Positions 6,425 through 45,254 are shown, counted from the first letter of the stretch. The stretch: DNA of 64,000 nucleotides from Bacteroidia bacterium (GCA_038206355.1 JBBRAY010000017.1:4364-68363), one strand, 5' to 3'. Notes: generated by a model not told the origin, from the sequence alone. Numbers and translations: made by a program.

Positions 6425-6571
6425 ATTCATTTTATAATTTGGCGGTGTGTAAAGCAGCCAGATGATTGAATGAAAACAAATCACTTATGGCTAGAATATT
6501 TTCAAAACGTTTTATTTCCTCTGATTTTTTTTCAGTACGACATAATTTGAAATGGATAAAACTTTTCAAAT

Positions 6572-15399: not shown

Positions 15400-15420
15400 C
15401 AAAAAAACTGACTTCTAAAT

Positions 15421-28381: not shown

Positions 28382-28416
28382 GCAGTCGCGGATTTTATTT
28401 CGACTTTGCAACTCCT

Positions 28417-28488
28417 GAACTATTGAACTATTGAACTATTGAACTATTGAACTTTTGAACTAATCAACAAATCAACTACTCAACCAAA
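28417..28488. repeat. Tandem 8-bp repeat (GAACTATT x4 perfect, then degenerate GAACTTTT, GAACTAAT, CAACAAAT, CAACTACT, CAACCAAA) abutting the fabD start codon
   Basis: Read directly from the sequence. The 8-nt periodicity runs into the ATG at 28488. Confidence 0.8.
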
Positions 28489-29372
28489 TGAAAGCATACA
28501 TCTTCCCCGGACAAGGCTCACAATTTATCGGAATGGGAAAGGATCTTTACGATTCCTCCACTATTGCCAAAGCGCTTTTTGAAAAAGCAAATTCATTGCT
28601 GGGTTTTAATATTACAGATCTGATGTTCAGCGGAACAGATGAGGACCTGAAACAAACAAAGGTCACACAACCGGCTATCTTTTTGCATTCGATTATTCAG
28701 GCAATAGTCATGGGTGATTCATTGAAACCGGATATGGTTGCCGGTCATTCGCTCGGCGAGTTCTCTGCACTTGTGGCAAATAAAACACTCACATTTGAAA
28801 ATGCATTGTTGCTGGTGAAAGAACGTGCCGGTGCCATGCAGGCAGCATGTGAAGCAAATCCTTCCACAATGGCAGCAGTTCTTAGTCTGGAAGATGCTAT
28901 AGTCGAAAATATTTGCGCTGAAGTATCAGCCTCAGGAGAAATTGTTGTTGCAGCAAATTATAATTGTCCGGGCCAGTTGGTCATCAGTGGAACGATTAAC
29001 GGAGTAAACATAGCCTGCGAAAAATTAAAAGCTGCCGGCGCCCGTCGGGCATTGGTACTACCTGTTGGCGGCGCATTTCATTCTCCATTGATGGAACCTG
29101 CACGCACACGACTTGCCAAAGCCATTGAAGGAACAACATTCTCTGTTCCGGTTTGTCCGGTATATCAAAACGTTACCGCGAAACCGGTAATCAATCCAGA
29201 TGAAATAAAACAAAATCTCATCGCACAACTCACAGCTCCCGTTCGCTGGACGCAAACCATTCAAAACATGATTGCCGACGGCGCAACACAGTTTATTGAA
29301 GTTGGTCCGGGGAAGGTGCTTCAAGGGCTTGTAAAGAAAGTGAATAAAGAGATGGAAGCGGTTTCTGCGTAG
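28488..29372 (+). CDS. fabD: Malonyl-CoA:ACP transacylase
   Basis: MKAYIFPGQGSQFIGMG, the GHSLGEFSAL active-site Ser, and a conserved C-terminal Gln/His. Confidence 0.9.
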   Translation: MKAYIFPGQGSQFIGMGKDLYDSSTIAKALFEKANSLLGFNITDLMFSGTDEDLKQTKVTQPAIFLHSIIQAIVMGDSLKPDMVAGHSLGEFSALVANKTLTFENALLLVKERAGAMQAACEANPSTMAAVLSLEDAIVENICAEVSASGEIVVAANYNCPGQLVISGTINGVNIACEKLKAAGARRALVLPVGGAFHSPLMEPARTRLAKAIEGTTFSVPVCPVYQNVTAKPVINPDEIKQNLIAQLTAPVRWTQTIQNMIADGATQFIEVGPGKVLQGLVKKVNKEMEAVSA

Positions 29373-29373
29373 G

Positions 29374-29470
29374 GGAAGTAGGGAGGGGAAGTCGCAAGCG
29401 GAAGTCAGTAGGGGAAGTCCCAAGGGGAAGTCAAGAGGAGAAGTCGCTAGGCAACCTCTTGCGACTTCTG
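29374..29470. repeat. GA-rich degenerate ~9-mer array (GGGGAAGTC-like units) with an embedded inverted repeat (GAAGTCGCAAG...CTTGCGACTTC)
   Basis: Read directly. It is the reverse-complement counterpart of the TC-rich array downstream of the 29553..29966 gene. Confidence 0.6.
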
Positions 29471-29966: not shown

Positions 29967-30010
29967 AATGGTAACATTAATTAAAACTAAAAATTCACGG
30001 CTATTGGATT

Positions 30011-30222
30011 TGACTCCCTCCTTCCGCTCCCTACTACCTACTAATCGGCTGCTGTTCTTCACTTCCTCCTTCCGCTCCCTACTCGCGACCACTCGGCTGC
30101 TGGATTTAACTCCCTCCTTCCGCTCCCTACTTGCGACCACTCGGCTGCTGGATTTACCTCCCTCCTTCCGCTCCCTACTCGCGACCACTCGGCTGCTGGA
30201 TTTAACTCCCTCCTTCCATCTA
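30011..30222. repeat. Tandem ~48-bp repeat, about 4.3 copies (unit TCCCTCCTTCCGCTCCCTACTCGCGACCACTCGGCTGCTGGATTTAAC)
   Basis: Read directly, with periods of 48, 48, 49 and 47 nt. It has open frames in several phases only because the unit length is a multiple of 3. Confidence 0.85.
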
Positions 30223-30241
30223 AAATACTAATCAACAACAA

Positions 30242-31771
30242 GTGCCAATCATAAACTCGATACTCTCCTGGTGGATGAAAAAACGAATGCACCAGGTGGA
30301 GCTTTTCATCAAGTACCCGCATGAGGTGCAGGAGGACTGGCGTGTGCGGTTGATTCAGGCTGCTAAGATGACGGAATGGGGACGCAAATATGACTACTCA
30401 ACTATACGGTCGCTGAAAAATTTTAAAGAACGTGTACCGGTTAGCAATTATGATTCGGTTAAACCATTTATTAAACGGATCATGCATGGCGAACAGAATA
30501 TTTTATGGCCCAGCGATATCAAATGGTTTGCAAAATCTTCCGGAACTACATCCGATAAAAGTAAATTCATTCCTGTCAGCAATGAAGCGATGGAGGAATG
30601 TCATTTCAAAGGAGGAAAAGATTGCGTTTCATTTTATTGTACAAACAACCCCGATACAAAAATATTTACAGGAAAGGCGCTGCTACTCGGCGGAAGTCAC
30701 CAGATCAACACTTTCAGTAATGAATCTTTTTATGGTGACATCTCCGCTGTACTCATGCAGAACCTCCCCTTCTGGATACAGTTCCTTCGAACACCTGATT
30801 TATCCATTGCCCTCATGGATAAGTGGGAAGAAAAAATTGAACGACTTGCCGATGCTACTATCAATGAAAACGTAACCAACATCAGTGGTGTTCCTACCTG
30901 GACGCTTGTGCTGGCGAAACATGTGATGGAGATGACCGGTAAAAGCAACCTCCTCGAAATATGGCCAAACCTGGAATTGTTTATCCATGGTGCTGTGAGT
31001 TTCACTCCTTACCGCGACCAGTTTGCAAAACTGATTCCTTCGGAGAAAATGAGTTACCTGGAAACCTATAATGCCTCAGAAGGTTTTTTTGGTATTCAGG
31101 ATCAGCCACGCAGCGATGAGATGTTGCTGATGCTCGACTATGGTATTTACTATGAGTTCATGCCGATGGAAGAATACGGAAAAGATTTCCCTGATACCCT
31201 TTCACTCGAACAGGTGGAGCTCAATAAAAATTATGCTGTCGTCATTTCCACCAATGCCGGACTGTGGAGATACCTCATCGGCGATACCGTGAGGTTCACT
31301 TCTTTGAATCCATACCGGATAAAAATTACAGGACGTACTAAATTATTCATCAATGCCTTTGGCGAAGAGGTGATGATTGAAAATACTGACAATGCTGTAC
31401 ATATTGCCTGTGAGAAAACAGAAGCACTGATCAGGGATTATACTGTTGCTCCTGTTTATTTTTCTGAAAGTGAAAACGGTGCCCATGAATGGCTAATCGA
31501 ATTTGAAAAAGCACCTGACAACCTTGACTACTTTATTGAAACGCTTGATACTGCTCTCAAATCACTCAACAGCGATTACGAGGCAAAACGGTATAAAAAT
31601 ATGGCGCTCAGAAAACCAATACTAAAGGTACTTCCTGAAAATACATTCTATTCATGGATGAAGAGCAAAGGAAAACTGGGCGGACAGCACAAAGTACCAA
31701 GATTGAGTAATGATCGTAAATTTGTGGAGGAGATTCTTCATATGCTGGATCAACAGAATACTAAGGTATAG
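30242..31771 (+). CDS. GH3-family (auxin-responsive-promoter-like) acyl-acid amido synthetase homolog
   Basis: 509 aa. The N-terminus (LFIKYPHEVQEDWRVRLIQAA...) and the adenylate-forming GH3 architecture (SSGTTSDKSKFIPVS, YNASEGFFGIQD) fit the family. Confidence 0.8.
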   Translation: MPIINSILSWWMKKRMHQVELFIKYPHEVQEDWRVRLIQAAKMTEWGRKYDYSTIRSLKNFKERVPVSNYDSVKPFIKRIMHGEQNILWPSDIKWFAKSSGTTSDKSKFIPVSNEAMEECHFKGGKDCVSFYCTNNPDTKIFTGKALLLGGSHQINTFSNESFYGDISAVLMQNLPFWIQFLRTPDLSIALMDKWEEKIERLADATINENVTNISGVPTWTLVLAKHVMEMTGKSNLLEIWPNLELFIHGAVSFTPYRDQFAKLIPSEKMSYLETYNASEGFFGIQDQPRSDEMLLMLDYGIYYEFMPMEEYGKDFPDTLSLEQVELNKNYAVVISTNAGLWRYLIGDTVRFTSLNPYRIKITGRTKLFINAFGEEVMIENTDNAVHIACEKTEALIRDYTVAPVYFSESENGAHEWLIEFEKAPDNLDYFIETLDTALKSLNSDYEAKRYKNMALRKPILKVLPENTFYSWMKSKGKLGGQHKVPRLSNDRKFVEEILHMLDQQNTKV

Positions 31772-31804
31772 GAATGAGGATTGAGTATTGAAGTGGGAAT
31801 GATA

Positions 31805-32125
31805 AGTCAGAAGTTAAAAGTTAAAAGTTACGAATTACGAGTTTCAAATTGAGGACGAATAAATGACCAATGACGGCTGCTCCTTTCCCCACGTTCACCC
31901 CTTCCCCATAGCCATCGGGACCTGAAGGGGGCATTCGCACAGAATATGATATACAATTTTGATTTTGTACTCGATTATAATCCCGTGAACTAATGACTTA
32001 ATGACGGCTGCTTCTTCTTAAGTCAAAACGCAAAAGTTAAAAGTTACAAGCTACGAATTACGAGTTTCAAATTTACAATGAGCAAATGACTAATGACTTA
32101 ATGACGGCTGCTTCAATGACGGTTG
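31805..32125. repeat. Intergenic repeat family: two ~80-bp copies (AAAAGTTAAAAGTTAC.AG.TACGAATTACGAGTTTCAAATT...AATGAC.AATGACGGCTGCT.C) plus extra copies of the AATGACTTAATGACGGCTGCTTC module, flanking a CCCCTTC...GAAGGGG hairpin
   Basis: Read directly. There is no ORF of 60 aa or more in this 400-bp gap. Confidence 0.6.
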
Positions 32126-32168
32126 TTTCAGCAATACTCAAGACGTAAATTAAAATTTATATTAAAAA

Positions 32169-32960
32169 GTGAAATTGAAAAACCTAATTTCCATCATCAC
32201 TTGCATCGTACTTGTTTCATTCACTCCGGATGAATTCAGGCTGATCAATTCTTTGCCGTTCACAAGCGCCCGCCTTACAACTGATCGCCTTGGGAACGCA
32301 TACGTCATTGTTGAAAATCAGCTATTGGAATTTGATTCATTGGGAAAACCGAAAGCCAATTTCGCAGAAACAAATTCCGGAATACTTACTTCAGTTGATG
32401 CCGGTAATCCGTTTAAGATAATGCTGTTCTACCGCGACTTTGCCCGTTTGCAATTGCTCAACAATAAACTATCAAAGGAATCTACCATCGAATTACGTGA
32501 TGCAGGAATCATGCAGCCGCTCGTGGCATGCCAGTCGTATCTTGATGGTTACTGGATTTTTGACCAGCAGGATTTCTCTCTTAAAAAAATAAACCTCAGC
32601 CTCCGGCTAGTTTACCAGAGTGGAAACATGAATCAGACACTGGGCTATTCACTGGAACCGGAATCAGTAAAAGAATCCGGCGACAATATTTACATGAACA
32701 ATCCCGCTACGGGAATGCTGGTTTTTGATAAGTTCGGCACTTACTATAAAACCATTCCGATTACCGGCATTGTCTCATATCAGATTATCGAAAATAATTT
32801 ATTGTACGTCAAAGACAATAAACTCAACCAGTACAATTTTACCACCTTCGACGACCACGAGGTAATACTCCCTCCTTTTGAATCACTGGTGGCGGCAAGA
32901 TTTGAACAGCAGAAACTTTTTTTATTAACAACTGCCTCTCTTACTTTTTATTCTTATTAG
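32169..32960 (+). CDS. Hypothetical protein
   Basis: 263 aa with a hydrophobic N-terminus and beta-rich composition. No recognised motif. Confidence 0.4.
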   Translation: MKLKNLISIITCIVLVSFTPDEFRLINSLPFTSARLTTDRLGNAYVIVENQLLEFDSLGKPKANFAETNSGILTSVDAGNPFKIMLFYRDFARLQLLNNKLSKESTIELRDAGIMQPLVACQSYLDGYWIFDQQDFSLKKINLSLRLVYQSGNMNQTLGYSLEPESVKESGDNIYMNNPATGMLVFDKFGTYYKTIPITGIVSYQIIENNLLYVKDNKLNQYNFTTFDDHEVILPPFESLVAARFEQQKLFLLTTASLTFYSY

Positions 32961-33049
32961 ATTCGCTCGCTGAAACGTTTTTCGTTCACATAATCAGGAA
33001 AACAACAACAAAATACTTATTTCGAATTTAACATTATTCAATTTAAACT

Positions 33050-33799
33050 ATGACAGTTAAAAGCGTCCGCAAAAAATCTTCCTCCAAGGCAAGTGTAAAA
33101 TCAAAAGCACCATCACGTAAAGTAAATGTGACTGTAAAGTCCGAAAAGGAAAAGTACATCCCGACAAAGAAGCAGGTGAATCCGCTTCACATTGCCATTG
33201 CCGGGAATATCGGCGCCGGAAAAACAACACTGACCAATCTGCTTTCCAAAAACATGAAATGGGAACCGCATTATGAAGCGGTAGAGGACAATCCATACCT
33301 CAACGATTTTTATGAGGACATGCAGCGCTGGAGTTTTAACCTACAAATCTATTTTCTCAATTCCCGCTTTCAGCAGGTGATGAAAATCCGCCAGAGCGGG
33401 AAAACAATTATCCAGGACAGGACCATTTATGAAGACGCACACATCTTTGCTCCAAATTTACATAGTATGGGACTGATGACCACCCGCGACTTCAACAATT
33501 ACCAGGCGTTGTTTGATCTGATGAACAAATTTATTTCTCCGCCTGATTTACTGATCTATCTGCGTGCATCTGTTCCAACGCTGGTAAACCAGATCCAGAA
33601 ACGTGGTCGCGATTATGAAAATACCATCCGCATTGATTACTTAAAACGATTGAATGAGCGTTATGAAGCATGGATATCAACCTATGAAATGGGAAAAATC
33701 TTAGTCATTGACATCGACCACATCAACTTTGCAGAAAACCGCGAAGACCTCGGTGGCATCATCAATAAAATAAATTCACAGATCAACGGATTGTTTTAA
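33050..33799 (+). CDS. Deoxynucleoside kinase (dNK/dGK family) with a ~45-aa Lys/Ser-rich N-terminal extension
   Basis: P-loop IAIAGNIGAGKTT. ERS-like and lid motifs are present (EAVEDNPYLNDFYEDMQRWSFNLQIYFL; IQDRTIYED). The N-terminus (MTVKSVRKKSSSKASVKSKAPSRKVNVTVKSEKEK) is histone-H1-like. Confidence 0.8.
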   Translation: MTVKSVRKKSSSKASVKSKAPSRKVNVTVKSEKEKYIPTKKQVNPLHIAIAGNIGAGKTTLTNLLSKNMKWEPHYEAVEDNPYLNDFYEDMQRWSFNLQIYFLNSRFQQVMKIRQSGKTIIQDRTIYEDAHIFAPNLHSMGLMTTRDFNNYQALFDLMNKFISPPDLLIYLRASVPTLVNQIQKRGRDYENTIRIDYLKRLNERYEAWISTYEMGKILVIDIDHINFAENREDLGGIINKINSQINGLF

Positions 33800-33877
33800 T
33801 TACTTAACATATACTACCCAGCATAAACAATTTGCGAAGTGGTAACTTAGACTTGAAAAGAGGTTGTCTCAAAATTA

Positions 33878-33898
33878 AAGAGATGGCCTCTTTTTTTT
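33878..33898 (+). terminator. Putative Rho-independent terminator after the kinase gene
   Basis: AAAGAG-ATGGC-CTCTTT hairpin followed by a T8 run. Confidence 0.45.
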
Positions 33899-33982
33899 AC
33901 CCTTATGGTTAGCAGGGATTTCTATTTCAGATTTTAGTTGCCCGCGAGTGGAATACCTTATGATTTTTTTTCGCGCTCTTTA

Positions 33983-34237
33983 ACCCATTCTACTTTTTAT
34001 CCTGATCAGCGCATTCACAAATTTGCTGCTTTTCTTTTTATTAAACCTCCCGCAGTTTATTTTTTCAAAAATATTTTTTTATCCAATAATTAAATTCCAT
34101 CTCCAATTTCGATTACGATTCTTAAAACCTATATGCCTGCCTGGATTGTAAGCCCGGCTGTTCTTTTCTTTTTAGCAGCCACATCCGCTTTTTAATGCAA
34201 CCATCTTCTGATGAAGAAGATTGTGTATTTTTCAAAA
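33983..34237. repeat. Cassette leader repeat, copy 1 (~250 bp, near-identical to 35936..36181)
   Basis: Two blocks (about 110 bp and 105 bp) are almost identical between the copies, separated by a ~40-bp diverged core. It contains the ATCTTC-TGATG-GAAGAT hairpin immediately 5' of the downstream gene. Confidence 0.85.
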
Positions 34238-34251
34238 CTAAAAATATCATT

Positions 34252-35091
34252 ATGAAAATAATAATTCTTCTTTTCGTTCTAAGCATTTCCTTATTGTTAA
34301 CAACTGCTTCTAAAGCCCAAATAATTCTGGAACATACTCTGGATTCAACTGGCGTTCCCTATTTTTATTATACTGATATCGGGAACAACGATTTTAAATA
34401 TGTTTTTCTCAATCGAGCATTAAATAGTTTTAGCTTGTTTAATATGGATATGTCACCATTCCTTATAAATATTAGTATCCCTGTAACCAATGATTCAATT
34501 TCCCAGGGGTTTGGTGTTATATATATCACGAAAACTTTATTTGATTGCGACTCTACAAACCTTGAATATGTTTATGAAAATCCTTACAGCGTCAATAGTA
34601 AGTTTCGTGTATTTAGAACAGACGGAACAATGTTACTTGAGGTGGATAGTGCCAACGGTCCATATTATTTAGGAGGAGGAATTTATGGGGGCTCCAATGA
34701 TTTCAGACCAATTGCAAATACATCAGATGGAACAAAATTGTTTTTACAGAAATACAATAATAATGGCATACCAGAGATATTAATTTATGGTTTGTGCGGT
34801 ATTCTTCCATTGCACATTTATGATTTCAGAGACATGAAATCATACGTACAAATATTTCCTAATCCAGTAAATCAGGAATTAAATTTTGAAATCTCGTTGC
34901 CAAATAATCATGAAGAATTTCAAATTACAATTTTTGATACGAATTCCAAGGAACAAAAAAAGCAGTGTATTTCATTATCTCAAAACAAATGTGTTCTTGA
35001 TGTGAGAAATTACAACAGTGGTACCTATTTCTATTCCCTTTCCTCAAAGAATAAAATATATCAAAGTGGTAAATTTATGATATCAAAGTAA
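34252..35091 (+). CDS. T9SS-sorted hypothetical protein, cassette gene 1, copy a (the ORF track extends to 34195 through the repeat)
   Basis: The start at MKIIILLF has a signal peptide. The TLFDCDSTNLEY motif is shared with its paralog. The C-terminus (YVQIFPNPVNQELNFEI...GTYFYSLSSKNKIYQSGKFMISK) is T9SS sorting-domain-like. Confidence 0.65.
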   Translation: MKIIILLFVLSISLLLTTASKAQIILEHTLDSTGVPYFYYTDIGNNDFKYVFLNRALNSFSLFNMDMSPFLINISIPVTNDSISQGFGVIYITKTLFDCDSTNLEYVYENPYSVNSKFRVFRTDGTMLLEVDSANGPYYLGGGIYGGSNDFRPIANTSDGTKLFLQKYNNNGIPEILIYGLCGILPLHIYDFRDMKSYVQIFPNPVNQELNFEISLPNNHEEFQITIFDTNSKEQKKQCISLSQNKCVLDVRNYNSGTYFYSLSSKNKIYQSGKFMISK

Positions 35092-35132
35092 AATTAATAA
35101 AAATAAATCTTAACTTCAAAAAATAAATACAA

Positions 35133-35831
35133 ATGAAAAATCAATTCAAACTGATAACATTAACCATATTGGTAATCGTCAGTGCCCAATTCAATTCTGC
35201 CGTTGGGCAGGTAACAGTTCCTACAAATGGGATTACTTCTACCGATTATGTCGGCAGTAGTAATCCTAATGATGTATTGTTTAAAGGAAATGGAAATCTT
35301 TATTTAAAACTATTGCAAAGCAACGGTAATCTTGGTTTAAGTAACCCAACAAATTGGGCTGGCGGTTTTGTTCCTAATTTTAGTTTAGATGTAGATGCCG
35401 GAGACATTAATTTAAACACCTTCACCAATGCATATCGTATTGGCGATGGCTCAACAGGTAATAGTGTTCCTGTACTTTGGCATAACGGTATTATCAGCAG
35501 TATTTATGTAGGCGTTGGAGCAGGGAACTCAACAAGCGCGGCTACGGAGAATACCTTTGTTGGTAACAATTGCGGAAATATTATTGGACTTGGGGGCTCC
35601 AATACTTTTGTAGGGTACAATTCGGGAGCCTTAAATACAGGTGGTTCACTAAACACTTATATTGGTAGCAGCGCCGGTCCGATAAGCACTACAGGAGATG
35701 CAAATACTTTTATTGGAAATGAGTCCGGATTTTCTAATATAACCGGCGGGGAAAACACCTTTGTTGGCGCACTCAGCGGCCATACCAGTAATGGCGGTGG
35801 CGGAAATACCTTTATTGGTGCAAGGGTATAA
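35133..35831 (+). CDS. Gly-rich fibre-like repeat protein, N-terminal module only (cassette gene 2, copy a). It lacks the stalk, the S74 module and the sorting domain
   Basis: Signal peptide. NTF(V/I)G beta-helix-like repeats. The last ~105 aa are encoded by a block ~98% identical in nucleotides to 37390..37702. It ends (..GNTFIGARV*) where copy b continues. Confidence 0.6.
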   Translation: MKNQFKLITLTILVIVSAQFNSAVGQVTVPTNGITSTDYVGSSNPNDVLFKGNGNLYLKLLQSNGNLGLSNPTNWAGGFVPNFSLDVDAGDINLNTFTNAYRIGDGSTGNSVPVLWHNGIISSIYVGVGAGNSTSAATENTFVGNNCGNIIGLGGSNTFVGYNSGALNTGGSLNTYIGSSAGPISTTGDANTFIGNESGFSNITGGENTFVGALSGHTSNGGGGNTFIGARV

Positions 35832-35935
35832 TCCGGAAATTAAAATCATTTCTCTTTCTGATGGAAATTTTTCTGTATATTTAGTCTCAGTAATCTAAAT
35901 CAGTAATGGAAACATCCCCTCTCGTTTCTCTTTTA

Positions 35936-36181
35936 CTTTTTATCCTGATCAGCGCATTCACAAATTTGCTGCTTTTCTTTTTATTAAACCTCCCGCAGTT
36001 TACTTTTTCAAAAATTTTTTTTTACCCGCTCGGTAAATTCAATCTTACGTTTCGGTTGCAAATCTTAAAACCTGTATGCCTGCCTGGATTGTAAGCCCGG
36101 CTGCTCTTTTCTTTTTAGCAGCCACATCCGCTTTTTAATGCAACCATCTTCTGATGAAGAAGATTGTGTATTTTTCAAAAA
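35936..36181. repeat. Cassette leader repeat, copy 2
   Basis: See copy 1. Both copies carry TATGCCTGCCTGGATTGTAAGCCCGGCTG..TTTTTAGCAGCCACATCCGCTTTTTAATGCAACCATCTTCTGATGAAGAAGATTGTGTATTTTTCAAAA. Confidence 0.85.
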
Positions 36182-36197
36182 AATAAAAATTAATTCT

Positions 36198-37022
36198 ATG
36201 AAAATAATTCCGTTTGTTTTGATGTTACTGTTAAGTATTTTAAGCAAAGCTCAATTTACTTTTGAGCAAACCTATATAATAGGCGGAGGACATGAATCGC
36301 CTTTTCTAACCAATCTTGGAAACAATAATTTCAAGTGGGTTTTGAATGACTATTTCCACGACAAGTTCAGTTTGTACAATTTGGATCACAGTCCATTTTT
36401 GGTAAATATACCATACGCCGTTTCTTCTGATTCAGGACAATCGTACGCATTAGGTTATATTACAAATACATTATTTGATTGCGACAGCACAAACATTGAA
36501 TATACTTTGATGAGCGCATCTCCGAATCCTGCTCGAAAATTTATGGTGTACAGAACGGATGGTACGCTCTTGTTTTCTAAGGACAGCGTTACAGTTCCTT
36601 ATGCTCTCGGTGCTAATGTTGGAAGCGTTTCATGGCATGGTGTAACTAATACAAATGGAGGAACTAAACTGACGCTCTTTAAAGCCATCTCAGGTCAATT
36701 TCAATTTAACATATATGGGCTATGTGGAATATTGCCTGAAAATATAACAGAGATCTACCAATCGTCATCTTTTGTTCAAGTTTCACCTGTGCCATCTTCG
36801 AACCAGGTAAAATTCAGGATAATTCCTCCCGGCAACCTGGATGAATACAATTTAATAATTTTTAATTCGGAATATCAAACCATACAAACTACAAGTATTC
36901 CCACAGGACGTGAGACTGAAATAAACCTGGACGGCCAGTCTTTAAGTACAGGAACTTATTTCTATTCTCTGCAAAACAAAAACAAAATATTTCAAACAGG
37001 AAAATTCATTATTTCAAAATAA
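36198..37022 (+). CDS. T9SS-sorted hypothetical protein, cassette gene 1, copy b (paralog of 34252..35091 at roughly 40% identity)
   Basis: MKIIPFVLMLLLSILSKAQ signal. TLFDCDSTNIEY and YGLCGILP are shared with copy a. The C-terminus (FVQVSPVPSSNQVKFRI...GTYFYSLQNKNKIFQTGKFIISK) is T9SS sorting-domain-like. Confidence 0.65.
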   Translation: MKIIPFVLMLLLSILSKAQFTFEQTYIIGGGHESPFLTNLGNNNFKWVLNDYFHDKFSLYNLDHSPFLVNIPYAVSSDSGQSYALGYITNTLFDCDSTNIEYTLMSASPNPARKFMVYRTDGTLLFSKDSVTVPYALGANVGSVSWHGVTNTNGGTKLTLFKAISGQFQFNIYGLCGILPENITEIYQSSSFVQVSPVPSSNQVKFRIIPPGNLDEYNLIIFNSEYQTIQTTSIPTGRETEINLDGQSLSTGTYFYSLQNKNKIFQTGKFIISK

Positions 37023-37059
37023 AATTCTTTAAACAACATACACTTAATTCTTAAATAAA

Positions 37060-39614
37060 ATGAAAAAAAGTATATCCTTTACAGTTATCATCTGGATAAT
37101 TATGCTATTTAATTTTAGCATGAATGCACAGACTACCGTCCCTGCAAATTCACCTTCATTAGCTACTGACCATCTTGGATGGGATGTAAACTCTTATTTA
37201 ACCGTTAATTCTCTCGATATAGCAACTAAAGATGTTGGGGCTAATGCAATTCCTATTAATTTTTATACAGATAATACTTTATTCCTCCAAGTTCTCACCG
37301 GTGGAGATTTGAATATCGCGCAACCTACCAATGGCTATATGATAGACAACGATTTTGTGCTGCGGCATAATGGAACCGTATCAAGCATCTATGTAGGCGT
37401 TGGCGCAGGGAACTCAACAAGCGCGGCTACGGAGAATACCTTTGTTGGTAACAATTGCGGAAATATTATTGGACTTGGGGCTCCAATACTTTTGTAGGGT
37501 ACAATTCGGGGGCATTAAATACAGGTGGTTCACTAAACACTTATATTGGTAGCAGCGCCGGTCCGTTAAGCACTACAGGAGATGCAAATACTTTTATTGG
37601 AAATGAGTCCGGATTTTCTAATATAACCGGCGGGGAAAACACCTTTGTTGGCGCACTCAGCGGCCATACCAGTAATGGGGGTGGCGGAAATACCTTTATT
37701 GGAAATTCGGCCGGATATGTAATGTAGAATAGGAGTGGCTGTACTTTTGTTGGAAATTCGAGCGGCTATAATACAACAGAAAGAGGTAATTCATTTTTCG
37801 GCGGTGATGCGGGTGCATCCACAACTGAAGGCACGTATAACACTTTTATTGGCTATGAAGGCGGCAATGGGAATGTGTCAGGGAGTTTCAATTCAGCTAT
37901 TGGTTTTCAGGCTGGTTTTAATAATGGTTCAGGTAATTACAATACACTTCTGGGCTGCACAGCAACTGTTCAAAGCGGTGCCACTCGTCTTAATTGTACG
38001 GCAGTTGGTGCCAATACCATTGTACCAGGGAGTAATCAACTCATACTTGGTGGTAATACTATTGGCACTACTCATAATGATGTAAATGTCGGCATAGGAT
38101 TATCGGGAGATAATACCGGGGCAAATGGTCTTGGCTATGAAGGACCTGCTGTTAAGCTTGAAATAAACGCAGATGCCAACAGTTTTGCTTATACAAGTGC
38201 CGGTAGTGGATTGCGCTTTAGGCAACTTACAACTGCCAATGATGTTACTGCCAACCCCGGACCAGGATTATTGTCAGTAACCGAGGACGGAGATGTTATA
38301 TATGTTGAAGACATCGGAAATTACTGTAATGAAACACCGCAAAGAGCATTACGTGCTGATTATGAAATTCCGCTTTATGATAATATTGGCATGACAGGTC
38401 ACGATTATTATTTTACAGGATCATCAATTGGCGTTACGGACATTATTGTTGGGGAACCTGTTTGTGGTACAAACCCCATTCCGAGTTCAAAATTTCAATC
38501 CTATCAGTTAATGAATCAGGGCGTTCCGAGCTATGCCGGTTATTTTAAAAATAGTACGGATGACAAAACCGCGGTAGGTGCATTGGGAATATCAGATGCA
38601 TCACAGAACATTAATTTTGGTCTGCAAGGTTTTGTAAGAGAGTATAGAGGTAAATCTAATTATGGTGTTCTTGGAGCGACCATTCCGAACCCAGCAGCAC
38701 TAATAGGCAATATTAATATTGGCGTTTATGGCTATGCTAACCTGAATCCTGATCCAGCAATCTCAAAGAGGAACTATGCTGTAGTTGGTGACTTAGGTCC
38801 TATGTGTGCCGCTTGTACTTCGGGTACAGCCGGAGGATTTCTTGATTTTGCCGGATATTTTAATGGAGATTTGTTTACAACTGCCGGATTTTACACACCT
38901 TCAGATTCAACTCTTAAGGAAAACATTCAGGATATTACTAACCCGATGGATATAATAAATTCATTGAATCCTAAATCGTATACTTTTAAACAGCAAGGTA
39001 ACGAATCAATGCATTTATCGAGCGGCACGCATTACGGTTTGTTAGCTCAGAATATTGCTTTAGTATTACCTTTCGCAGTAAAAGATTGTATTCATCCGGC
39101 TCGATACGATTCACTGGGAAACCAAACGCACGATGAAATAGATTTCAAAGGAGTTAACAATTTAGAAATAATTCCATTCCTGATTGCAGCAGTGAAAGAG
39201 CAAGAACAGACGATTGAAGCAATGCAAGCAGAAATTGCTACACTTAATGGCGGAGGCAATCGCCAAAACCATCATAGTGGTGAAGAAGAGAATTCTAGTG
39301 ATGAAGAACAAGGCACTCGTTCCTCCATTGATGTTGAATTGCAAAACGCAAAATCAATCATCCTCAACCAAAATGTACCTAACCCGTTTGCAGAGCAAAC
39401 AACCATTACCTACTTTCTTACTGATGATGTAAAGAAAGCACAAATGTTCTTTTATGATAACAAAGGAACGATCTTAAAAACGGTTGACATCAATGAAAAA
39501 GGTGAGGGGCAAATTAATGTTTTCGCTGCAGATCTCAGCAGTGGAAACTATACCTACACTCTTGTCGCTGATGGAAAAGTTATGGATACTAAGAAAATGA
39601 TTAAGACAAACTAA
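37060..39614 (+). pseudogene. Full-length fibre-like protein (cassette gene 2, copy b), interrupted by a 1-nt G-run frameshift near 37485 and an in-frame TAG at 37725..37727. Its modules are signal peptide, Gly-rich NTFxG repeats, a stalk, a peptidase-S74 intramolecular-chaperone module, an acidic linker and a T9SS C-terminal sorting domain
   Basis: The ORF pieces 37060..37497, 37455..37727 and 37875..39614 are colinear. G4 here versus G5 in copy a (35596) accounts for the frameshift. Translation continues in the same frame straight through the TAG. SDSTLKENIQDITNPMD...KSYTFK...HYGLLAQNIALVLPFAVK is the auto-cleaving tail-spike chaperone signature. The C-terminus (NVPNPFAEQTTITYFL...GNYTYTLVADGKVMDTKKMIKTN) is T9SS sorting-domain-like. 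Confidence 0.6.
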
Positions 39615-39671
39615 GAACTGATTTTTCGAAATTAATTTTCAGGAAAAGAGTTTGTAGCTTGAAATTATTAA

Positions 39672-39712
39672 GAGCCCTTCGGTCCCGGATAATAAGAACG
39701 AAGGGCTTTTTT
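39672..39712. terminator. Bidirectional Rho-independent terminator between the convergent fibre gene and the O-methyltransferase gene
   Basis: AGAGCCCTTCG-(17 nt)-CGAAGGGCT followed by T6. On the opposite strand it is A-rich. Confidence 0.7.
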
Positions 39713-39716
39713 GCAC

Positions 39717-40784
39717 TCAAACCTTTTTACACTTCAACAGCGAATGATAAACCCCGATATCATCCGTTTGCTCCGCAATTGTAAATCCTGCCTTCTCCAC
39801 ACATTGCTGAAATACTTTTGAATAATACATCTGACTGTTGCCATTGGCGATAGTGGTGAAGTACAGCGAAGTCATCTGTAAGCAAAAAGCAGAAGTTTCA
39901 AAATCCTGTTGGTCCCACAATGTTTCCATAATGTAAACATGCCCGGCTTCCGATACTGCGTCACGGCAGCGACTCAGGATTGAAACAATTTCATCGTCAG
40001 AAAAACAATCCAGAAACTGGCTCATCCAGATGGCATCAAATCCCTGAGGAAATTTTTTATCGCCTTCGAGAATATTATTTTCGAAAAATGAAATGCGGTT
40101 GCTCAGTCCGAGTTCGGCTACATTTTTCTTCGCCATCTCTAATTGTCCGGGCAAATCCATAATGGTAACATGCACATCGGGATCATGTTTCACGCATTGT
40201 ATCGCCCACTTGCCCGTGTTGCCACCAATATCAAGCAGGTGTTTGGGCTTGTCTTTGAATATAGCTTTCAATGCATACGGAAAGGCATGGTCAGAATAAT
40301 AATGATCGAAGCCAAACCAGCTTCGCTGTACATGTACAGGTAGTTTCGACAACCCTTCATACACCGTTTTCCAGTTTCCAAAAACTTTTAGTCCTTCCGG
40401 CTTTCCGTTTCTGATGGATTCATCAAGACGAAACAACCCTTCATAGCAAACATCATGTGTGAAGTCCATATTCGCTTTCGTCATCGGATCATTCAGAATA
40501 AAATAACCCGTTTTACTCAGGCGGTATTTTTCATCATCCCACAATAACAAACCAATACCCAATCCTGCTTCCATGAGTACACGCGCACCATAATGACTCA
40601 GGTTACATTTTTTCTCCACCTGTTCAATGGTTACAGCATTAGGTTTTTGCGATTCTATATATTCCAGTATTCCGAAATCACGCAAGGCACGCGATGCCTG
40701 AAAAACAAATGGTGCATAAGCTATCCACTGTGCATTTTCCTTTGCTTCAAGAGCAGTCTTTACTTCCTTTTTGAAAAAATCCAT
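39717..40784 (-). CDS. Class I SAM-dependent O-methyltransferase (dimerisation domain plus Methyltransf_2-like)
   Basis: LLDIGGNTGKWAIQ is SAM-binding motif I, followed by the acidic motif II (IMDLP). 355 aa. It borders the pigment-type fatty-acid-synthase-like cluster. Confidence 0.7.
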   Translation of the reverse strand: MDFFKKEVKTALEAKENAQWIAYAPFVFQASRALRDFGILEYIESQKPNAVTIEQVEKKCNLSHYGARVLMEAGLGIGLLLWDDEKYRLSKTGYFILNDPMTKANMDFTHDVCYEGLFRLDESIRNGKPEGLKVFGNWKTVYEGLSKLPVHVQRSWFGFDHYYSDHAFPYALKAIFKDKPKHLLDIGGNTGKWAIQCVKHDPDVHVTIMDLPGQLEMAKKNVAELGLSNRISFFENNILEGDKKFPQGFDAIWMSQFLDCFSDDEIVSILSRCRDAVSEAGHVYIMETLWDQQDFETSAFCLQMTSLYFTTIANGNSQMYYSKVFQQCVEKAGFTIAEQTDDIGVYHSLLKCKKV

Positions 40785-41682: not shown

Positions 41683-43221
41683 ATGGTTTCAATAGGCGAT
41701 CGCTACCTGGCGCTGGAGGATTTAATTGCAATTGTGGAACAAAACCGTAAAGTTGAGTTGAATGACACAGCTACACGAAGAGTTTACCAGAGCTATTATT
41801 TCCTAAAAGAGTTCATCAAGGAAAAACTGATTTACGGTATTAATACCGGCTTCGGCCCTATGGCCCGTTACCGCATCAATGCTGAAGACCAGGTAGACCT
41901 CCAGTTCAACCTCATACGCAGCCATTGCAGCGGAAGCGGTGCCATGATTGACCCACTTTTTGTAAAAGCAACATTGATTGCACGTCTCAATACCTTGCTT
42001 TTGGGCTATTCCGGAATCCATCCTGATGCTGTTGAATTGCTGAAGGAGATGATCAACCACGATGTGCTTCCTGTCATATACGAACATGGCGGTTTGGGCG
42101 CCAGCGGTGACCTCGTCCAACTTGCACATGTGGCGCTTTCCATGATCGGCGAAGGAAATGTAATTCATGCTGGCACAGTGAAAAAAACCGCCGACGTATT
42201 TGCAAAAGAAAAAATTACTCCGTTGCAAGTTCATATCAGAGAAGGACTTGCGTTGATGAACGGCACCTCTGCCATGTGCGGAATTGGTGCTTTGAATATC
42301 AGCAATGCAAAAAACCTGATGAACTGGTCGGTGGCCATTTCATCCATGATCGTAGAACTTGTTGAATCGTATGACGACCACTATTCTTCCGAACTGAATA
42401 ACGTAAAGCAGCATGAAGGCCAGAGAAAGGTGGCCGGAATGATGAGGGCATTTCTGGTTGACAGTAAAATGGTGAAGAGCCGTGAAGAGCATCTGTACAA
42501 CAGAAAGATTGACGAGAATATCCTAAAGGAAAAAGTACAGGAATATTATTCCATCCGCTGCGTGCCGCAAATTCTCGGACCGGTTTACGACACCATTGCA
42601 AACGCGGAAAAAGTGGTGATGGATGAAATCAATTCAGTGAATGACAATCCTGTTATTGATTATGAAAATAAAAATGTTTTTCACGGAGGAAATTTTCACG
42701 GAGATTATGTGGCATTGGAGATGGACAAACTAAAAATTGCCGTTGCCAAACTATCTATGTTGTGCGAACGACAACTTAATTTCCTAATGAACGACCACCT
42801 GAACGGAAAGCTTCCGCCTTTTGTAAATCTCGGAAAACTCGGATTGAATATCGGCATGCAGGGCACACAGTTTACGGCAACTTCTACCGTTGCAGAAAAT
42901 CAAATGCTCTCCAACCCGATGTATGTTCACAGCATTCCAAGCAATAACGACAACCAGGATATCGTAAGTATGGGATCAAATGCTGCGCTGATAGCTGCAA
43001 AGGTGATCAACAATTCATTTGAAATAATAGCCATTGAATTAATTTCTCTCGTTCAGGCCATTGATTACCTCGGCATTGCAAATAAACTTTCATCAGCATC
43101 TAAAGTTGTTTACCATGATGTCAGGAAATTAGTTCCTGTCTTCAAGAGCGATGAGATCATGTACGAGCGTGTAAAAATTGTAAAGGATTTTTTAAAAAAC
43201 AATAAGAAAAATCTCAATTGA
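41683..43221 (+). CDS. Aromatic amino-acid ammonia-lyase (HAL/PAL/TAL family, MIO-forming)
   Basis: GGLGASGDL MIO tripeptide. NTGFGP, and conserved Tyr, Arg and Asn lyase residues. 512 aa. Its neighbours argue for a tyrosine/phenylalanine starter-unit role rather than histidine catabolism. Confidence 0.85.
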   Translation: MVSIGDRYLALEDLIAIVEQNRKVELNDTATRRVYQSYYFLKEFIKEKLIYGINTGFGPMARYRINAEDQVDLQFNLIRSHCSGSGAMIDPLFVKATLIARLNTLLLGYSGIHPDAVELLKEMINHDVLPVIYEHGGLGASGDLVQLAHVALSMIGEGNVIHAGTVKKTADVFAKEKITPLQVHIREGLALMNGTSAMCGIGALNISNAKNLMNWSVAISSMIVELVESYDDHYSSELNNVKQHEGQRKVAGMMRAFLVDSKMVKSREEHLYNRKIDENILKEKVQEYYSIRCVPQILGPVYDTIANAEKVVMDEINSVNDNPVIDYENKNVFHGGNFHGDYVALEMDKLKIAVAKLSMLCERQLNFLMNDHLNGKLPPFVNLGKLGLNIGMQGTQFTATSTVAENQMLSNPMYVHSIPSNNDNQDIVSMGSNAALIAAKVINNSFEIIAIELISLVQAIDYLGIANKLSSASKVVYHDVRKLVPVFKSDEIMYERVKIVKDFLKNNKKNLN

Positions 43222-43266
43222 AATAATGTCGGCTGCTCCCAATCAACTTTATCAACCTTTTCACCA

Positions 43267-43995
43267 ATGAAATACGCATTAGTCACCGGAGGATCTCGAG
43301 GAATCGGCAAGGCCATTTGTCTGAAACTGGCAGAGCTGGGATATTTTGTGCTCATCAATTATCAGTCAAATAAAAAAGCAGCAGAAGAAACATTAGCTGA
43401 AGTAAGAGCAAAAGGAAGTGATGGCGAACTGATGATGTTTGACGTAGCAGACGAAACCCGGGTGAATGCTGTGCTCGGCGGATGGATTGAAAATCACAAA
43501 GAAGAACCAATAGAAATTCTCGTCAACAATGCAGGAATAAAAAACGATACTTTGCTGATGTGGATGAGTACGAAGCAATGGAAAGACGTATTGAATACCA
43601 GTGTAGATGGTTTCTTTTACGTTACCAAGGTCGTGGTTCAGGGAATGATCGTAAAGAAGTACGGAAGAATTGTGAACGTTGTTTCATTGTCGGGATTAAA
43701 AGGAATGCCGGGACAAGTGAATTATTCCGCTGCAAAAGCGGCTGTAATAGGCGCTACAAAAGCACTGGCGCAGGAAGTAGGAAGAAGAAACATTACGGTG
43801 AATGCTGTTGCTCCGGGATTTATAAGGACGGACATGACGAAAGAAATTGACGAGAAAAGTTTCAAGCAATTAATTCCGGTGGCGCGTTTCGGAAACCCTG
43901 AAGAAGTCGCAGAAGCCGTTTGTTTCCTTGCATCAGAAAAAGCGTCGTATATTACAGGGACCATACTAAACGTCAATGGCGGATTGTACACTTAG
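43267..43995 (+). CDS. fabG: 3-oxoacyl-ACP reductase (SDR)
   Basis: TGGSRGIGKA, NNAG and the YSAAK catalytic triad. Confidence 0.8.
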   Translation: MKYALVTGGSRGIGKAICLKLAELGYFVLINYQSNKKAAEETLAEVRAKGSDGELMMFDVADETRVNAVLGGWIENHKEEPIEILVNNAGIKNDTLLMWMSTKQWKDVLNTSVDGFFYVTKVVVQGMIVKKYGRIVNVVSLSGLKGMPGQVNYSAAKAAVIGATKALAQEVGRRNITVNAVAPGFIRTDMTKEIDEKSFKQLIPVARFGNPEEVAEAVCFLASEKASYITGTILNVNGGLYT

Positions 43996-44030
43996 TCACA
44001 TAATCACTTAATCACGTAGTCACTTCCAAA

Positions 44031-45254
44031 ATGAACAGAGTAGTAATAACAGGCATGGGGGTTTATTCCTGCCTGGGGAAAAATTTAGAAGAGGTTCGCA
44101 ATTCTTTATACACAGGGAAATCAGGTATTGGTTTTGATCCCGAAAGAAAAGCGTTTGGATTTCGATCAGGTCTAACAGGTATTGTAGAAAAACCACAACT
44201 GAAAGGAAAACTGGACCGCAGGCTGAGAATTGGATTGGCAGAAGAAGGAGAATACGCATACCTCTCTACCCTCGAAGCATTGGCAAACGCAAAGCTTGAT
44301 ACTGAATATCTTGATTCTCATGAAGCAGGAATTATTTTCGGTAACGATAGTTCTGCACTTGCTGTAGTTGAAGCAACAGATACCATCCGTTTGAAAAAGG
44401 ATACTACGCTTTTGGGATCTGGGTCTATTTTTCAGAGTATGAACTCAACGGTGAACATGAACCTTGCAACAATTTTCAAACTGAAAGGAATTAATTTCAC
44501 CGTGAGTGCAGCTTGTGCAAGTGGATCTCATGCGGCAGGATTGGGATTTTTATTTATCAAAGAAGGTTACCAGGACATAGTAATCTGTGGCGGTGCGCAA
44601 GAAGTAAATATGTATTCGATGGGAAGTTTCGATGGACTCAGTGCATTCTCCATCAGGGAAAATGAACCGGCAAAAGCTTCACGGCCGTTTGATAAATCAC
44701 GTGATGGATTAATTCCAAGTGGCGGAGCGGCAACAATTGTACTGGAAAGTTTAGAGAGCGCTCAAAGACGAGGTGCGAATATTCTCGGAGAAATTATCGG
44801 ATACGGATTTTCATCCAACGGCGACCATATCTCCAATCCCAACGTTGACGGGCCATACCGTTCACTGATGCGCGCCATGAAACAATCCGGTCTAAATATT
44901 TCTGACATTGACTATATCAATGCACATGCGACTTCCACTCCCAATGGTGATATGTTTGAAGCACGCGCTATTGATAAACTTTGCGGTGACGTAAAAACAG
45001 CTGTCAGTTCTACCAAATCAATGACAGGCCATGAATGCTGGATGGCAGGTGCAAGTGAAATTGTTTATTCATTGCTGATGATGCGCGATTCTTTTGTTGC
45101 GCCCAACATCAACTTCGAAACTCCTGATGAAGATTCGGCCAAGCTCAACATTATTGCGAAAACACTCGATAAGAATATTGATATTTTTCTATCCAACTCG
45201 TTTGGATTTGGAGGAACCAATTCGACAATTATCGTAAAGAAATTCAGAAATTAA
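44031..45254 (+). CDS. Beta-ketoacyl-ACP synthase (KAS I/II type)
   Basis: Active-site Cys in SAACASGSHAAG. The two His are in NAHATSTPNGD and KSMTGHECWMAGA. Confidence 0.85.
   Translation: MNRVVITGMGVYSCLGKNLEEVRNSLYTGKSGIGFDPERKAFGFRSGLTGIVEKPQLKGKLDRRLRIGLAEEGEYAYLSTLEALANAKLDTEYLDSHEAGIIFGNDSSALAVVEATDTIRLKKDTTLLGSGSIFQSMNSTVNMNLATIFKLKGINFTVSAACASGSHAAGLGFLFIKEGYQDIVICGGAQEVNMYSMGSFDGLSAFSIRENEPAKASRPFDKSRDGLIPSGGAATIVLESLESAQRRGANILGEIIGYGFSSNGDHISNPNVDGPYRSLMRAMKQSGLNISDIDYINAHATSTPNGDMFEARAIDKLCGDVKTAVSSTKSMTGHECWMAGASEIVYSLLMMRDSFVAPNINFETPDEDSAKLNIIAKTLDKNIDIFLSNSFGFGGTNSTIIVKKFRN

Follow-up and report, generated by a model that had tools for sequence, protein, structure and literature searches.

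This locus carries, twice in tandem, a leader, a gene for a small predicted secreted protein (gene-1) and a gene for a fibre-like protein, and we questioned whether the two units exchange alternative fibre tips, as the initial annotation had proposed, or instead record past recombination. The DNA derives from a soil or water Bacteroidota genome. The locus is chromosomal and lies amid housekeeping genes, and no phage genes were found among the flanking ORFs of the window, by which we mean the whole 64-kb stretch that was analysed. Alignment of the two copies confirmed the proposed repeat structure and both of its elements. The leaders (33988-34262 and 35931-36208) are 90% identical over 279 nt, reaching 100% at 34000-34059, 72% at 34060-34119 and 97% at 34120-34239 when divided into 60-nt segments. 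The fibre genes share a block (35471-35818 and 37356-37702) that is 95% identical over 350 nt, with 98% identity over its last 226 nt and 97-100% between 35539 and 35778. Neither repeat has a further copy within the 64-kb window. Both are direct, the spacing of the block copies shifts from 1885 to 1884 nt at a G-run, and as arms of ~280 nt (leader) and ~350 nt (block) they enclose a variable segment of 1.2-1.3 kb, in which gene-1 and the fibre N-terminus are 32-67% identical, with a sharp change at the arm boundaries. No inverted repeats were found bracketing the leader or the module, and inspection by eye of the flanking ORF translations, without a family-library scan, revealed no recombinase. 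The spacer between the units matched nothing elsewhere in the window or among 127 fetched loci, which are cited below by L number (Table 1).

Table 1. Coordinates of the features of the duplicated locus
Feature	Position	Strand	Remarks
Leader copy 1	33988..34251	+	Direct repeat of 35931-36208; covariance model R1 75.4 bits, E 5e-17
Gene-1a, 279 aa	34252..35091	+	Signal peptide; all-beta N-domain; T9SS type A CTD ~34852-35088
Fibre a, orphan N-terminal module, 232 aa	35133..35831	+	Signal peptide, 'LGSSN' type N-domain, VLWHNG junction, ~five Gly-rich NTF.G repeats
Shared block, copy a	35471..35818	+	In frame; G5 run at 35592-35596
Unique 112-nt spacer, end of unit a to leader copy 2	35819..35930		
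Leader copy 2	35931..36197	+	Core motif 36075-36141; R1 76.9 bits, E 2e-17
Gene-1b, 274 aa	36198..37022	+	Gene-1a paralog, different subfamily; family HMM 322 bits
Fibre b, disrupted full-length gene	37060..39614	+	Signal peptide, 'LGWD' type N-domain, shared block 37356-37702, Gly-rich repeats, stalk, S74 (Peptidase_S74 ~38901-39080), T9SS CTD (~39378-39611)
Lesion 1 in fibre b: G4 run vs G5 in copy a	37477..37480	+	1-nt frameshift inside shared block; stop at 37495-37497
Lesion 2 in fibre b: in-frame TAG	37725..37727	+	23 nt downstream of shared block end; persists after frame repair
GC-rich hairpin (agcccttcg..cgaagggct) then TTTTTT, 3' of fibre b	39672..39712		Read from sequence

Gene-1 is a small protein, predicted to be secreted, that combines a T9SS sorting domain with an N-domain resembling part of a beta-propeller. 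Its start codon belongs to a conserved MK(I/K), at 34252 and 36198, so that the two proteins are shorter than the ~295 residues first assigned to them; the extra 'MQPSSDEEDCVFFK' ahead of the start is translation of the conserved leader. Their paralogy stands, at 44% identity over 287 aligned residues (E 2e-64). The closest relatives of gene-1a, at 66-72% identity, belong to other genomes, whereas gene-1b is 44% identical to it, so the pair is not a recent local duplication; the nearest relatives of gene-1b likewise lie in other genomes (L080 and L083). The gene-1a N-domain carries invariant LFDCD, RTDGT and LCG motifs, and the suggested marker TLFDCDSTN does identify the family, as it holds the invariant LFDCD core. 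The type A sorting domain (Por_Secre_tail, PF18962 / TIGR04183), which had been attributed to both gene-1 proteins, scores above the curated cut-off in gene-1a and falls just short in gene-1b (23.4 against a cut-off of 27 and 22.6 against 23, respectively), as it does in fibre b (22.1 against 27 and 22.5 against 23); most homologs of gene-1b and of fibre b have a precomputed PF18962 match. All four proteins of the locus have hydrophobic N-termini ending in ..KAQ or ..NAQ.

The core motif of leader copy 1 (34132-34198) consists of a TGCCTGCCTGGAT box, a hairpin (GGCTG..CAGCC) and CCGCTTTTTAAT. A second hairpin follows at ~34194-34229, next to a T-run, and the predicted fold shows both. The leader hairpin is conserved in a subset of gene-1/fibre loci at 40-58 nt (73 nt in one) 5' of the gene-1 ATG, and Rfam 15 covariance models run against 33000-40500 gave no match up to E = 1. 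The 5' segment at 34000-34059 is identical between the two copies yet not conserved in other genomes, and the leader of L028 is likewise duplicated (85% over 327 nt). As a counterpoint to recombination, purifying selection on a regulatory element could explain part of the high identity of the leaders. At the other end of the locus, the GC-rich hairpin between fibre b and a convergent gene (39717-40784) is probably a terminator shared by both; a simple terminator scan did not report it, its loop probably exceeding the scan's 8-nt limit.

The second gene of the operon is predicted to encode a phage-tail-fibre-like protein composed of an N-domain, the VLWHNG junction, Gly-rich repeats, a stalk, an S74 chaperone and a T9SS sorting domain. 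On the repaired reading frame of fibre b PF13884 scores 48.9 bits (cut-off 22) at residues 615-674, and the C-terminal part matches PHROG phage tail-fibre families. The S74 domain includes SDSTLK (38901-38918), with a Ser followed five residues downstream by a Lys; this fits S-D-x-x-x-K, which we take to be the S74 catalytic motif, and the domain is predicted to be self-cleaving. In phage endosialidase-type fibres the S74 domain is cut off, so that the C-terminal end is free and the N-terminus is the attachment end. The earlier placement of the N-terminus at the distal tip overlooked this S74 domain, which lies between stalk and CTD with its SDxxxK motif kept. We also considered a trimeric autotransporter adhesin and rejected it, as Pfam returns only S74 and Por_Secre_tail, without a YadA-type C-terminal anchor. 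Some relatives of the fibre do have YadA head repeats (PF05658), and 'trimeric autotransporter adhesin' is a name that JGI gives to some.

Fibre a is, as first described, an N-terminal module only: its stop lies 13 nt past the end of homology with fibre b, and it has neither S74 domain nor CTD. Its N-domain is of the same type as the L049 fibre N-terminus (47% identity, residues 23-112). The N-termini of fibres a and b, initially called unrelated, are weakly alignable and strongly diverged, and as judged from this alignment they are distant homologs. The description of fibre b as full length did not hold, since a frameshift and a nonsense codon make the gene a pseudogene (Table 1). Both lesions are real because an intact relative of 898 aa in L010 (62% identity over the C-terminal 628 residues) reads through both positions, with Leu (TTA) in place of the TAG, and because the pieces of fibre b are on public record as separate 145-aa and 579-aa products of the same 68,499-nt contig. 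Recoding of TAG as sense was rejected, as TAG ends 6 of the 36 long ORFs in the window, a search for a suppressor found no tRNA gene there, and the interruptions in relatives do not keep to one type of stop. The locus therefore encodes no complete fibre and cannot act as a switch at present.

A search of other Bacteroidota, as the initial annotation had suggested, revealed that gene-1 and the S74 fibre form an uncharacterised T9SS operon that is widespread among MAGs of Chitinophagales and other Bacteroidota. A fibre-like ORF follows gene-1 in 46 of 87 distinct gene-1 copies, a lower bound, given that the simple filter used missed at least L010, L021, L025, L098 and L126. There are 173 fibre b relatives at E below 1e-30, mostly of 700-1050 aa and with PF13884 and PF18962, the nearest being 62-66% identical; when the window proteins were looked up by exact match, no further contig turned up, and no recombinant or ancestral arrangement was encountered for this lineage. 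The layout seen here, gene-1 with a truncated fibre N-module upstream of gene-1 with a full fibre, occurs in at least six other loci, with recurrent arrays in L081, L028, L003, L036/L095 and L068. In L121 a truncated unit precedes a second gene-1 in an array cut off by the contig end, and L084 has the order gene-1, gene-1, fibre. In three of the loci fragment and full fibre share a homology block starting at VLWHNG: L003 (84.5% over 155 nt), L081 (100% over 33 nt) and L068 (79% over 271 nt); no high-identity block was found in the L028 and L036 arrays, so its retention is not universal. The L027 fibre combines the N-type of the L003 orphan (61% aa) with a stalk like that of the L003 full fibre (55% over 740 aa). 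Fibre N-type follows gene-1 type only loosely (Mantel rho 0.28), and the L059 gene-1, 66% identical to gene-1a, is paired with a different fibre N-type. The fibre genes of this family decay often, through TAG, TAA, TGA or frameshifts at differing positions: an in-frame TAG is fixed in the L049-L058 fibres across 10 assemblies, together with two further disruptive variants, in-frame stops occur in L033, L001 and L006, and frameshifts in L014, L025 and L032.

Collectively, these data lead us to favour, with moderate confidence, the reading that unit a is a displaced orphan N-terminal module left behind by homologous recombination at the VLWHNG junction. Unit a would then be an anciently diverged second set of leader, gene-1 and fibre N-module lying in tandem upstream and ending just past the junction block. 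The arms, namely the leader and the block from VLWHNG onward, would have been recently exchanged or homogenised by homologous recombination, because stretches of them are 97-100% identical, in contrast to an interior in which differences have reached saturation. This agrees with the gene-conversion or recombination footprint that the initial annotation offered as its alternative, the better-supported half of its interpretation. We infer that a fibre N-module and its own gene-1 can be replaced together by recombination at the junction, and that the old module may sometimes stay behind upstream. Such an array could first form only through an illegitimate join at 35818/35819 or if a circular intermediate integrated, a step that the data do not explain.

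The best-surviving alternative, which we nevertheless regard as rather unlikely, is that the 5' part of the operon was duplicated in tandem long ago, with purifying selection keeping the leader similar and local gene conversion homogenising the Gly-rich block, and that no module was imported or displaced. Selection on the leader is plausible, since other genomes keep its core at a constant distance from the gene-1 ATG; Gly-rich repeats readily undergo conversion; and L028 has the appearance of an older array, with its 85% leader and no block identity. However, selection alone is insufficient to account for the 34000-34059 segment, gene-1a and gene-1b belong to different subfamilies and are each nearer to genes of other genomes, and only one unit is present in L049, the most closely related lineage.

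Less probable still is active tip-switching for antigenic or receptor variation, in which unit a would be a stored module moved through the leader and block arms into the expression site at a population-relevant rate. The locus is modular, its architecture recurs, and a swap of N-modules at the conserved junction is reasonable, so this part of the tip-exchange proposal survives. The arms would suffice for RecA-dependent conversion of the segment that they enclose, and the fibre genes of the family are often inactivated, as contingency loci are. Switching itself fits poorly: the nonsense codon lies outside the arms, so arm exchange never yields an intact fibre, and the repeats are direct, so that any switch would be a one-way deletion rather than a reversible event, with reciprocal recombination permanently removing unit b. 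One such deletion, by a crossover between the direct blocks on the 3' side of the G-run, would place tip a on stalk b and restore the frame, with the TAG remaining. There is also a single stored module, which has a leader, start codon and signal peptide of its own and so is not silent; neither flanking inverted repeats nor a noticed recombinase accompanies it. Phase-variable tracts slip efficiently only when longer than the G4/G5 run found here.

An assembly artefact, in which paralogous or strain-variant loci were joined through repeats and the frameshift is a consensus error, is the least probable explanation: the source is a metagenome-assembled contig, the 280-350 nt repeats exceed typical short reads, contigs of this family often break off within fibre genes and synteny with L007 stops directly after the dNK gene, just upstream of the module, but the join does not lie at a repeat (unit a runs 13 nt past the block to its stop and then into the unique spacer), the same architecture was assembled independently at least six times, in different studies, a substitution such as the TAG is untypical of assembly error, and the window's other long genes are intact.

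Having favoured a displaced N-terminal module, we compared the locus with known systems. Bacteroides-type shufflons and invertible promoters likewise vary Bacteroidota surface genes through repeated sequence, but they use inverted repeats and a site-specific recombinase; site-specific inversion was rejected here, as the repeats are direct, without flanking inverted repeats, and no recombinase was noticed. Fibre b belongs to a group that NCBI annotates as 'tail fiber domain-containing protein' or T9SS type A cargo of Bacteroidota, which is otherwise uncharacterised and whose annotation does not include the gene-1 pairing, the leader motif or orphan arrays; our literature search found no paper describing any of these three. 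With S74 phage tail fibres and tailspikes (endosialidase, T5 pb1) it shares the SDxxxK S74 domain, PHROG tail-fibre matches and mosaic swaps at conserved junctions, but the gene is chromosomal, its product bears a Sec signal peptide and, following S74, a T9SS sorting domain, and its partner is gene-1 rather than virion proteins. Neisseria pilS/pilE undergoes gene conversion from silent cassettes. As there, a variable segment between conserved flanks lies near a partial copy, which makes non-reciprocal copying possible; unlike there, the single extra copy comes with a leader, a start codon and a signal peptide of its own, identity within the variable segment is far lower (44% aa for gene-1, with fibre N-termini barely alignable), and no dedicated recombination-initiating element was identified at the locus.

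The closest parallel is provided by the orphan toxin tips of Rhs/CdiA proteins, such as the Salmonella Rhs orphans (PMC3967940); their arrays probably form by displacement of a resident module by an incoming one. In both cases a partial copy stands beside a full-length gene, keeps a short conserved block and has its own small partner gene, and the orphan module can become joined to the main gene when the direct blocks recombine. As in an orphan cassette, unit a shares a homology block (350 nt, 95%) with a nearby full-length gene, although the recipient gene is not intact. Here, however, the variable module is N-terminal and upstream, whereas theirs is C-terminal and downstream, so displacement would be the mirror image of theirs; the partner is a T9SS-sorted beta-propeller-like protein instead of an immunity protein, with no toxin domain; export is predicted to proceed through Sec and T9SS; and the main gene is inactivated. 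A more ambitious scheme, which we consider improbable, is that Bacteroidota keep RecA-driven orphan N-module arrays for T9SS-exported, phage-derived fibres, in which gene-1, as a surface-anchored partial beta-propeller, and the fibre N-domain would be co-adapted, the N-domain docking on gene-1 after S74 frees the fibre of its sorting domain, with modules swapped at VLWHNG and the new structured leader controlling the operon. If true, such arrays would constitute an N-terminal mirror image of the polymorphic-toxin orphans, serving surface-fibre attachment or specificity instead of toxins.

The two tandem units lie on the + strand in the order leader, gene-1 (a small T9SS-sorted protein gene, present as paralogs gene-1a and gene-1b) and a fibre-like ORF with a signal peptide. 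Global alignment of unit a against unit b, scored in 60-nt windows, revealed a mosaic in which leader identity runs through 100%, 72%, 97% and 97% in successive windows, the interior (gene-1 and the fibre N-terminal region) holds only 32-67%, and identity stands at 97-100% from 35539 to 35778 within the block, the fibre segment common to both units that starts at a VLWHNG junction. The variable segment is thus diverged in its interior and bounded by almost identical sequence; unit homology stops at 35818/37702, and the identity boundaries are very sharp. Neither repeat has a further copy anywhere in the 64-kb window, and the spacer at 35819-35930 matched no sequence compared. GC content is mostly 31-38% in the module, reaching 41-44% along the shared block and the repeats, and is about 40% outside, where translations of the flanking genes appear housekeeping-like.

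Features of the tandem units and of the closest gene-1a relative
Feature	Coordinates	Strand	Remarks
Leader copies	33988-34262 and 35931-36208	+	90% identity over 279 nt
gene-1a and gene-1b	34252-35091 and 36198-37022	+	proteins 44% identical
Fibre block copies	35471-35818 and 37356-37702	+	95% identity over 350 nt
Fibre a	35133-35831	+	
Fibre b	37060-39614	+	
Closest gene-1a relative (L049-L058)	fibre at L049 10840-13125		Logan assemblies SRR28520265-SRR28520292

The anatomy described in the initial annotation is real: the duplicated leader, the near-identical fibre block and the gene-1 copies as roughly 40% identical paralogs were all recovered on alignment, and fibre a is read as an orphan N-terminal module. 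Several details were in error. The fibre N-termini, held to be unrelated, span about 115 aa and are weakly alignable; gene-1 starts at a conserved MK codon, the upstream 'MQPSSDEEDCVFFK' being translated conserved leader; and fibre b, taken as full length, is not one ORF, its coding sequence being broken by a frameshift plus an in-frame TAG. The break in frame falls at a G-run that reads GGGG at 37477-37480 as opposed to GGGGG at 35592-35596 in copy a, with a stop at 37495-37497, and the TAG at 37725-37727 persists once the frame is restored. The intact 898-aa relative at comparison locus L010 is open through both lesion sites and has Leu (TTA) where fibre b has TAG. Since the public protein collection lists fibre b from this 68,499-nt contig in pieces, as two separate products of 145 aa and 579 aa, the lesions are present in the deposited sequence. 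A G-run of 4-5 nt was judged too short for phase variation and was treated as an ordinary frameshift. Recoding or read-through of the TAG was likewise rejected, given that TAG ends 6 of the 36 long ORFs in the window and that relatives carry varied lesions. No tRNA gene was found in the window.

Disrupted fibre genes also occur among other gene-1 relatives. In the closest relative of gene-1a, one in-frame TAG after fibre codon 237 is common to all ten independent assemblies (L049-L058); these fibres carry three rare variants, two of them disruptive (a C-to-A change at 12113, present in two samples, and a 1-nt deletion at 10941, present in a single sample), and gene-1 and the leader are invariant across the ten. 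Elsewhere, fibres are interrupted by an in-frame TAG (L033), TAA (L001) or TGA (L006) or are frameshifted (L014, L025 and L032). This variety argues for repeated inactivation of an often-hit family rather than for a recoding signal.

After repair, the fibre b sequence shows a Peptidase_S74 domain (48.9 bits) that contains the SDSTLK motif and precedes a T9SS sorting domain; PHROGs phage tail-fibre families are hit by its C-terminal part. It belongs to the large NCBI group 'tail fiber domain-containing protein', whose members are mostly 700-1050 aa, and its nearest fibre relative is 62-66% identical. The type A sorting domain is clear in gene-1a, and the corresponding scores of gene-1b and fibre b fall just below the curated cut-offs. 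In phage fibres, the S74 domain self-cleaves once the trimer has folded. In fibre b this domain follows the stalk and precedes the sorting domain; if it cleaves here too, the mature fibre would not be held C-terminally, and the N-module may be the attachment end. In that case the proposal that C-terminal anchoring makes the N-terminus the distal tip would be undercut by the intervening S74. Literature searches combining T9SS with S74 fibres turned up no specific account.

At least 185 proteins, drawn from MAGs of Chitinophagales and other Bacteroidota, make up the gene-1 family, in which LFDCD, R.DG and C motifs are invariant; exact look-ups in the assembly collection gave no further contigs with gene-1a, gene-1b or fibre a. 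The N-domain of gene-1a (34315-34848) is predicted to be all-beta (pLDDT 89), resembles only about three beta-propeller blades and had no good match in the PDB; oligomers of the predicted domain could complete a propeller. We regard gene-1 as a candidate partner of the fibre on account of its sorting domain, its location 5' of the fibre in half or more of the copies examined and its co-travel with the N-module in arrays. Identities of gene-1 and the fibre N-domain are only modestly correlated (rho 0.28, Mantel p 0.001, n = 41) with clear exceptions, and those of gene-1 and the fibre C-terminus are not significantly so (rho 0.10, n = 14). Strict co-evolution of gene-1 and the fibre N-domain was dropped in view of the weak correlation and its exceptions.

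We compared the module with 48 genome loci and 69 metagenome loci encoding gene-1 relatives, plus the 10 assemblies of the closest relative. Under a simple filter that accepts a fibre-like ORF with a signal peptide starting within 200 nt 3' of gene-1, and that missed several true cases, such an ORF lies downstream of at least 46 of 87 distinct gene-1 copies, so gene-1 followed by an S74 fibre is a conserved though not obligatory operon. The window's layout, gene-1 with a truncated fibre N-module and then gene-1 with a complete fibre, recurs in L081, L028, L003 (which holds four gene-1 copies), L036/L095 and L068; L121 has a truncated unit followed by a second gene-1 and then runs off its contig, and the order in L084 is gene-1, gene-1, fibre. 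The L003 fragment differs from its full fibre through the first 100 residues, after which the two share a 155-nt block, 84.5% identical, from 'VLWHNG'. L081 has 33 nt in common at 100% identity, over 'LWHNGNLQDIF', and L068 has 271 nt at 79%; L028 has a duplicated leader (85% over 327 nt) and no block identity between fragment and full fibre. The L027 fibre combines an N-type like the L003 orphan (61% aa) with a stalk homologous to that of the full L003 fibre (55% over 740 aa), as would be expected had a new module displaced an old one in the L003 lineage.

Repeats were also seen in two other arrangements. A leader-like region of at least 560 nt, lying upstream of gene-1 in L010 (1-560), recurs at 81% about 5.5 kb downstream (6090-6651), past the intact fibre, which suggests tandem complete operons; the same MAG carries two additional gene-1 loci (L038 and L039). 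In L025, 269-nt repeats at 98% (9335-9602 and 16870-17138) bracket a gene-1/fibre operon and a separate 156-aa fibre N-fragment downstream of it (14954-15424), an arrangement that differs from the window's.

Only L007 shares the window's upstream genes, and the common order stops after the deoxynucleoside-kinase-like gene. GH3-like, 263-aa protein and deoxynucleoside-kinase-like genes at L007 15641-18625 match window 30242-33799 at 66-74% aa, and the synteny break coincides with the start of the window's module; gene-1 of L007 stands alone with no fibre, and a tandem repeat (9432-9701) lies before it. In the window, a 48-nt tandem repeat (29998-30217, 4.6 copies, 87% match) just 5' of the GH3-family-like gene (30242-31771) yields spurious repetitive ORFs on both strands. 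Short tandem repeats flank the ORF at 28488-29372, an 8/24-nt TGAACTAT-type set (28410-28489) being intergenic just upstream and a 13/26/39-nt AGGGGAAGTC-type set (29369-29447) lying at the 3' end and beyond. Translations from 41683-45254 (ammonia-lyase-like with an ASGDL motif, a short-chain reductase and a further enzyme) are perhaps those of a pigment or aryl-polyene type cluster.

The suggested search of other Bacteroidota for the leader and for gene-1/S74-fibre pairs recovered both. Some gene-1 genes have leaders with a common core of TGCTGCCTGGAT, a hairpin (consensus GGCTGCG..CGCAGCC) and CCGCTTTTAAT, followed 3' by a second hairpin of variable sequence and a T-rich box. Scanning about 0.94 Mb with a covariance model gave 15 instances that were significant or nearly so; every one lies on the strand of gene-1 and ends 40-58 nt (one at 73 nt) 5' of the ATG. 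Comparative support is limited to the first hairpin, which shows compensatory changes at 5 of 7 pairs, some via G-U pairs; a proposed outer 4-bp helix has none. The leader had no Rfam match, its folding energy is unremarkable (z = -1.5 on the + strand, -1.4 on the - strand), and a sigma-70 promoter and terminator scan gave counts at shuffle level. The motif is a conserved cis-element of the gene-1/fibre operon, which may act near the promoter or as a structure in the 5' UTR. The 5' part at 34000-34059 is 100% identical between the window copies and was not found conserved in other genomes, which recent recombination explains better than selection.

The units are old paralogs or alleles: each window gene-1 is closer to genes of other genomes than to its neighbour copy. 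The mosaic identity and the recurrent orphan arrays with a junction block are consistent with a model in which gene-1 plus the fibre N-module would be exchanged by homologous recombination at the VLWHNG junction, with the displaced module occasionally kept upstream as an orphan. On this evidence the best reading of the locus is that of a recombination footprint in which an orphan N-module adjoins an inactivated fibre gene; a footprint had been offered as the alternative to tip switching. Were the two blocks to recombine 3' of the G-run, with loss of what lies between them, tip a would be fused to stalk b and the reading frame regained; the TAG, which lies 23 nt past the block, would stay, and a complete fibre would need a further change. 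As the repeats are direct, a reciprocal exchange would be irreversible; the main fibre is broken, the TAG lies outside the block, and the locus is not a demonstrated tip-switching system. An assembly mis-join between the units is unlikely: their boundary does not fall at a repeat, the intervening spacer is unique and independent assemblies show the same layout. An inversion or shufflon mechanism was rejected, as no inverted repeats flank the module.

Taken alone, the window carries the more modest message of a recombination footprint in which the main gene is broken. Environmental Bacteroidota commonly carry T9SS cargo of phage-tail-fibre architecture, as yet unstudied, and the comparison delineates a conserved partner gene and leader element for T9SS S74 fibres, frequent inactivation of the fibre genes, and N-modules recurrently stranded upstream with the partner gene, the recombination block retained. 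If the displacement model holds, it would provide a testable hypothesis for fibre attachment following S74 self-cleavage and would extend the orphan-cassette principle of Rhs/CdiA toxins to surface-fibre N-termini. The orphan tip cassettes of these toxins, which can be reactivated through direct-repeat recombination, are the closest described parallel to the window's orphan N-module (PMC3967940).
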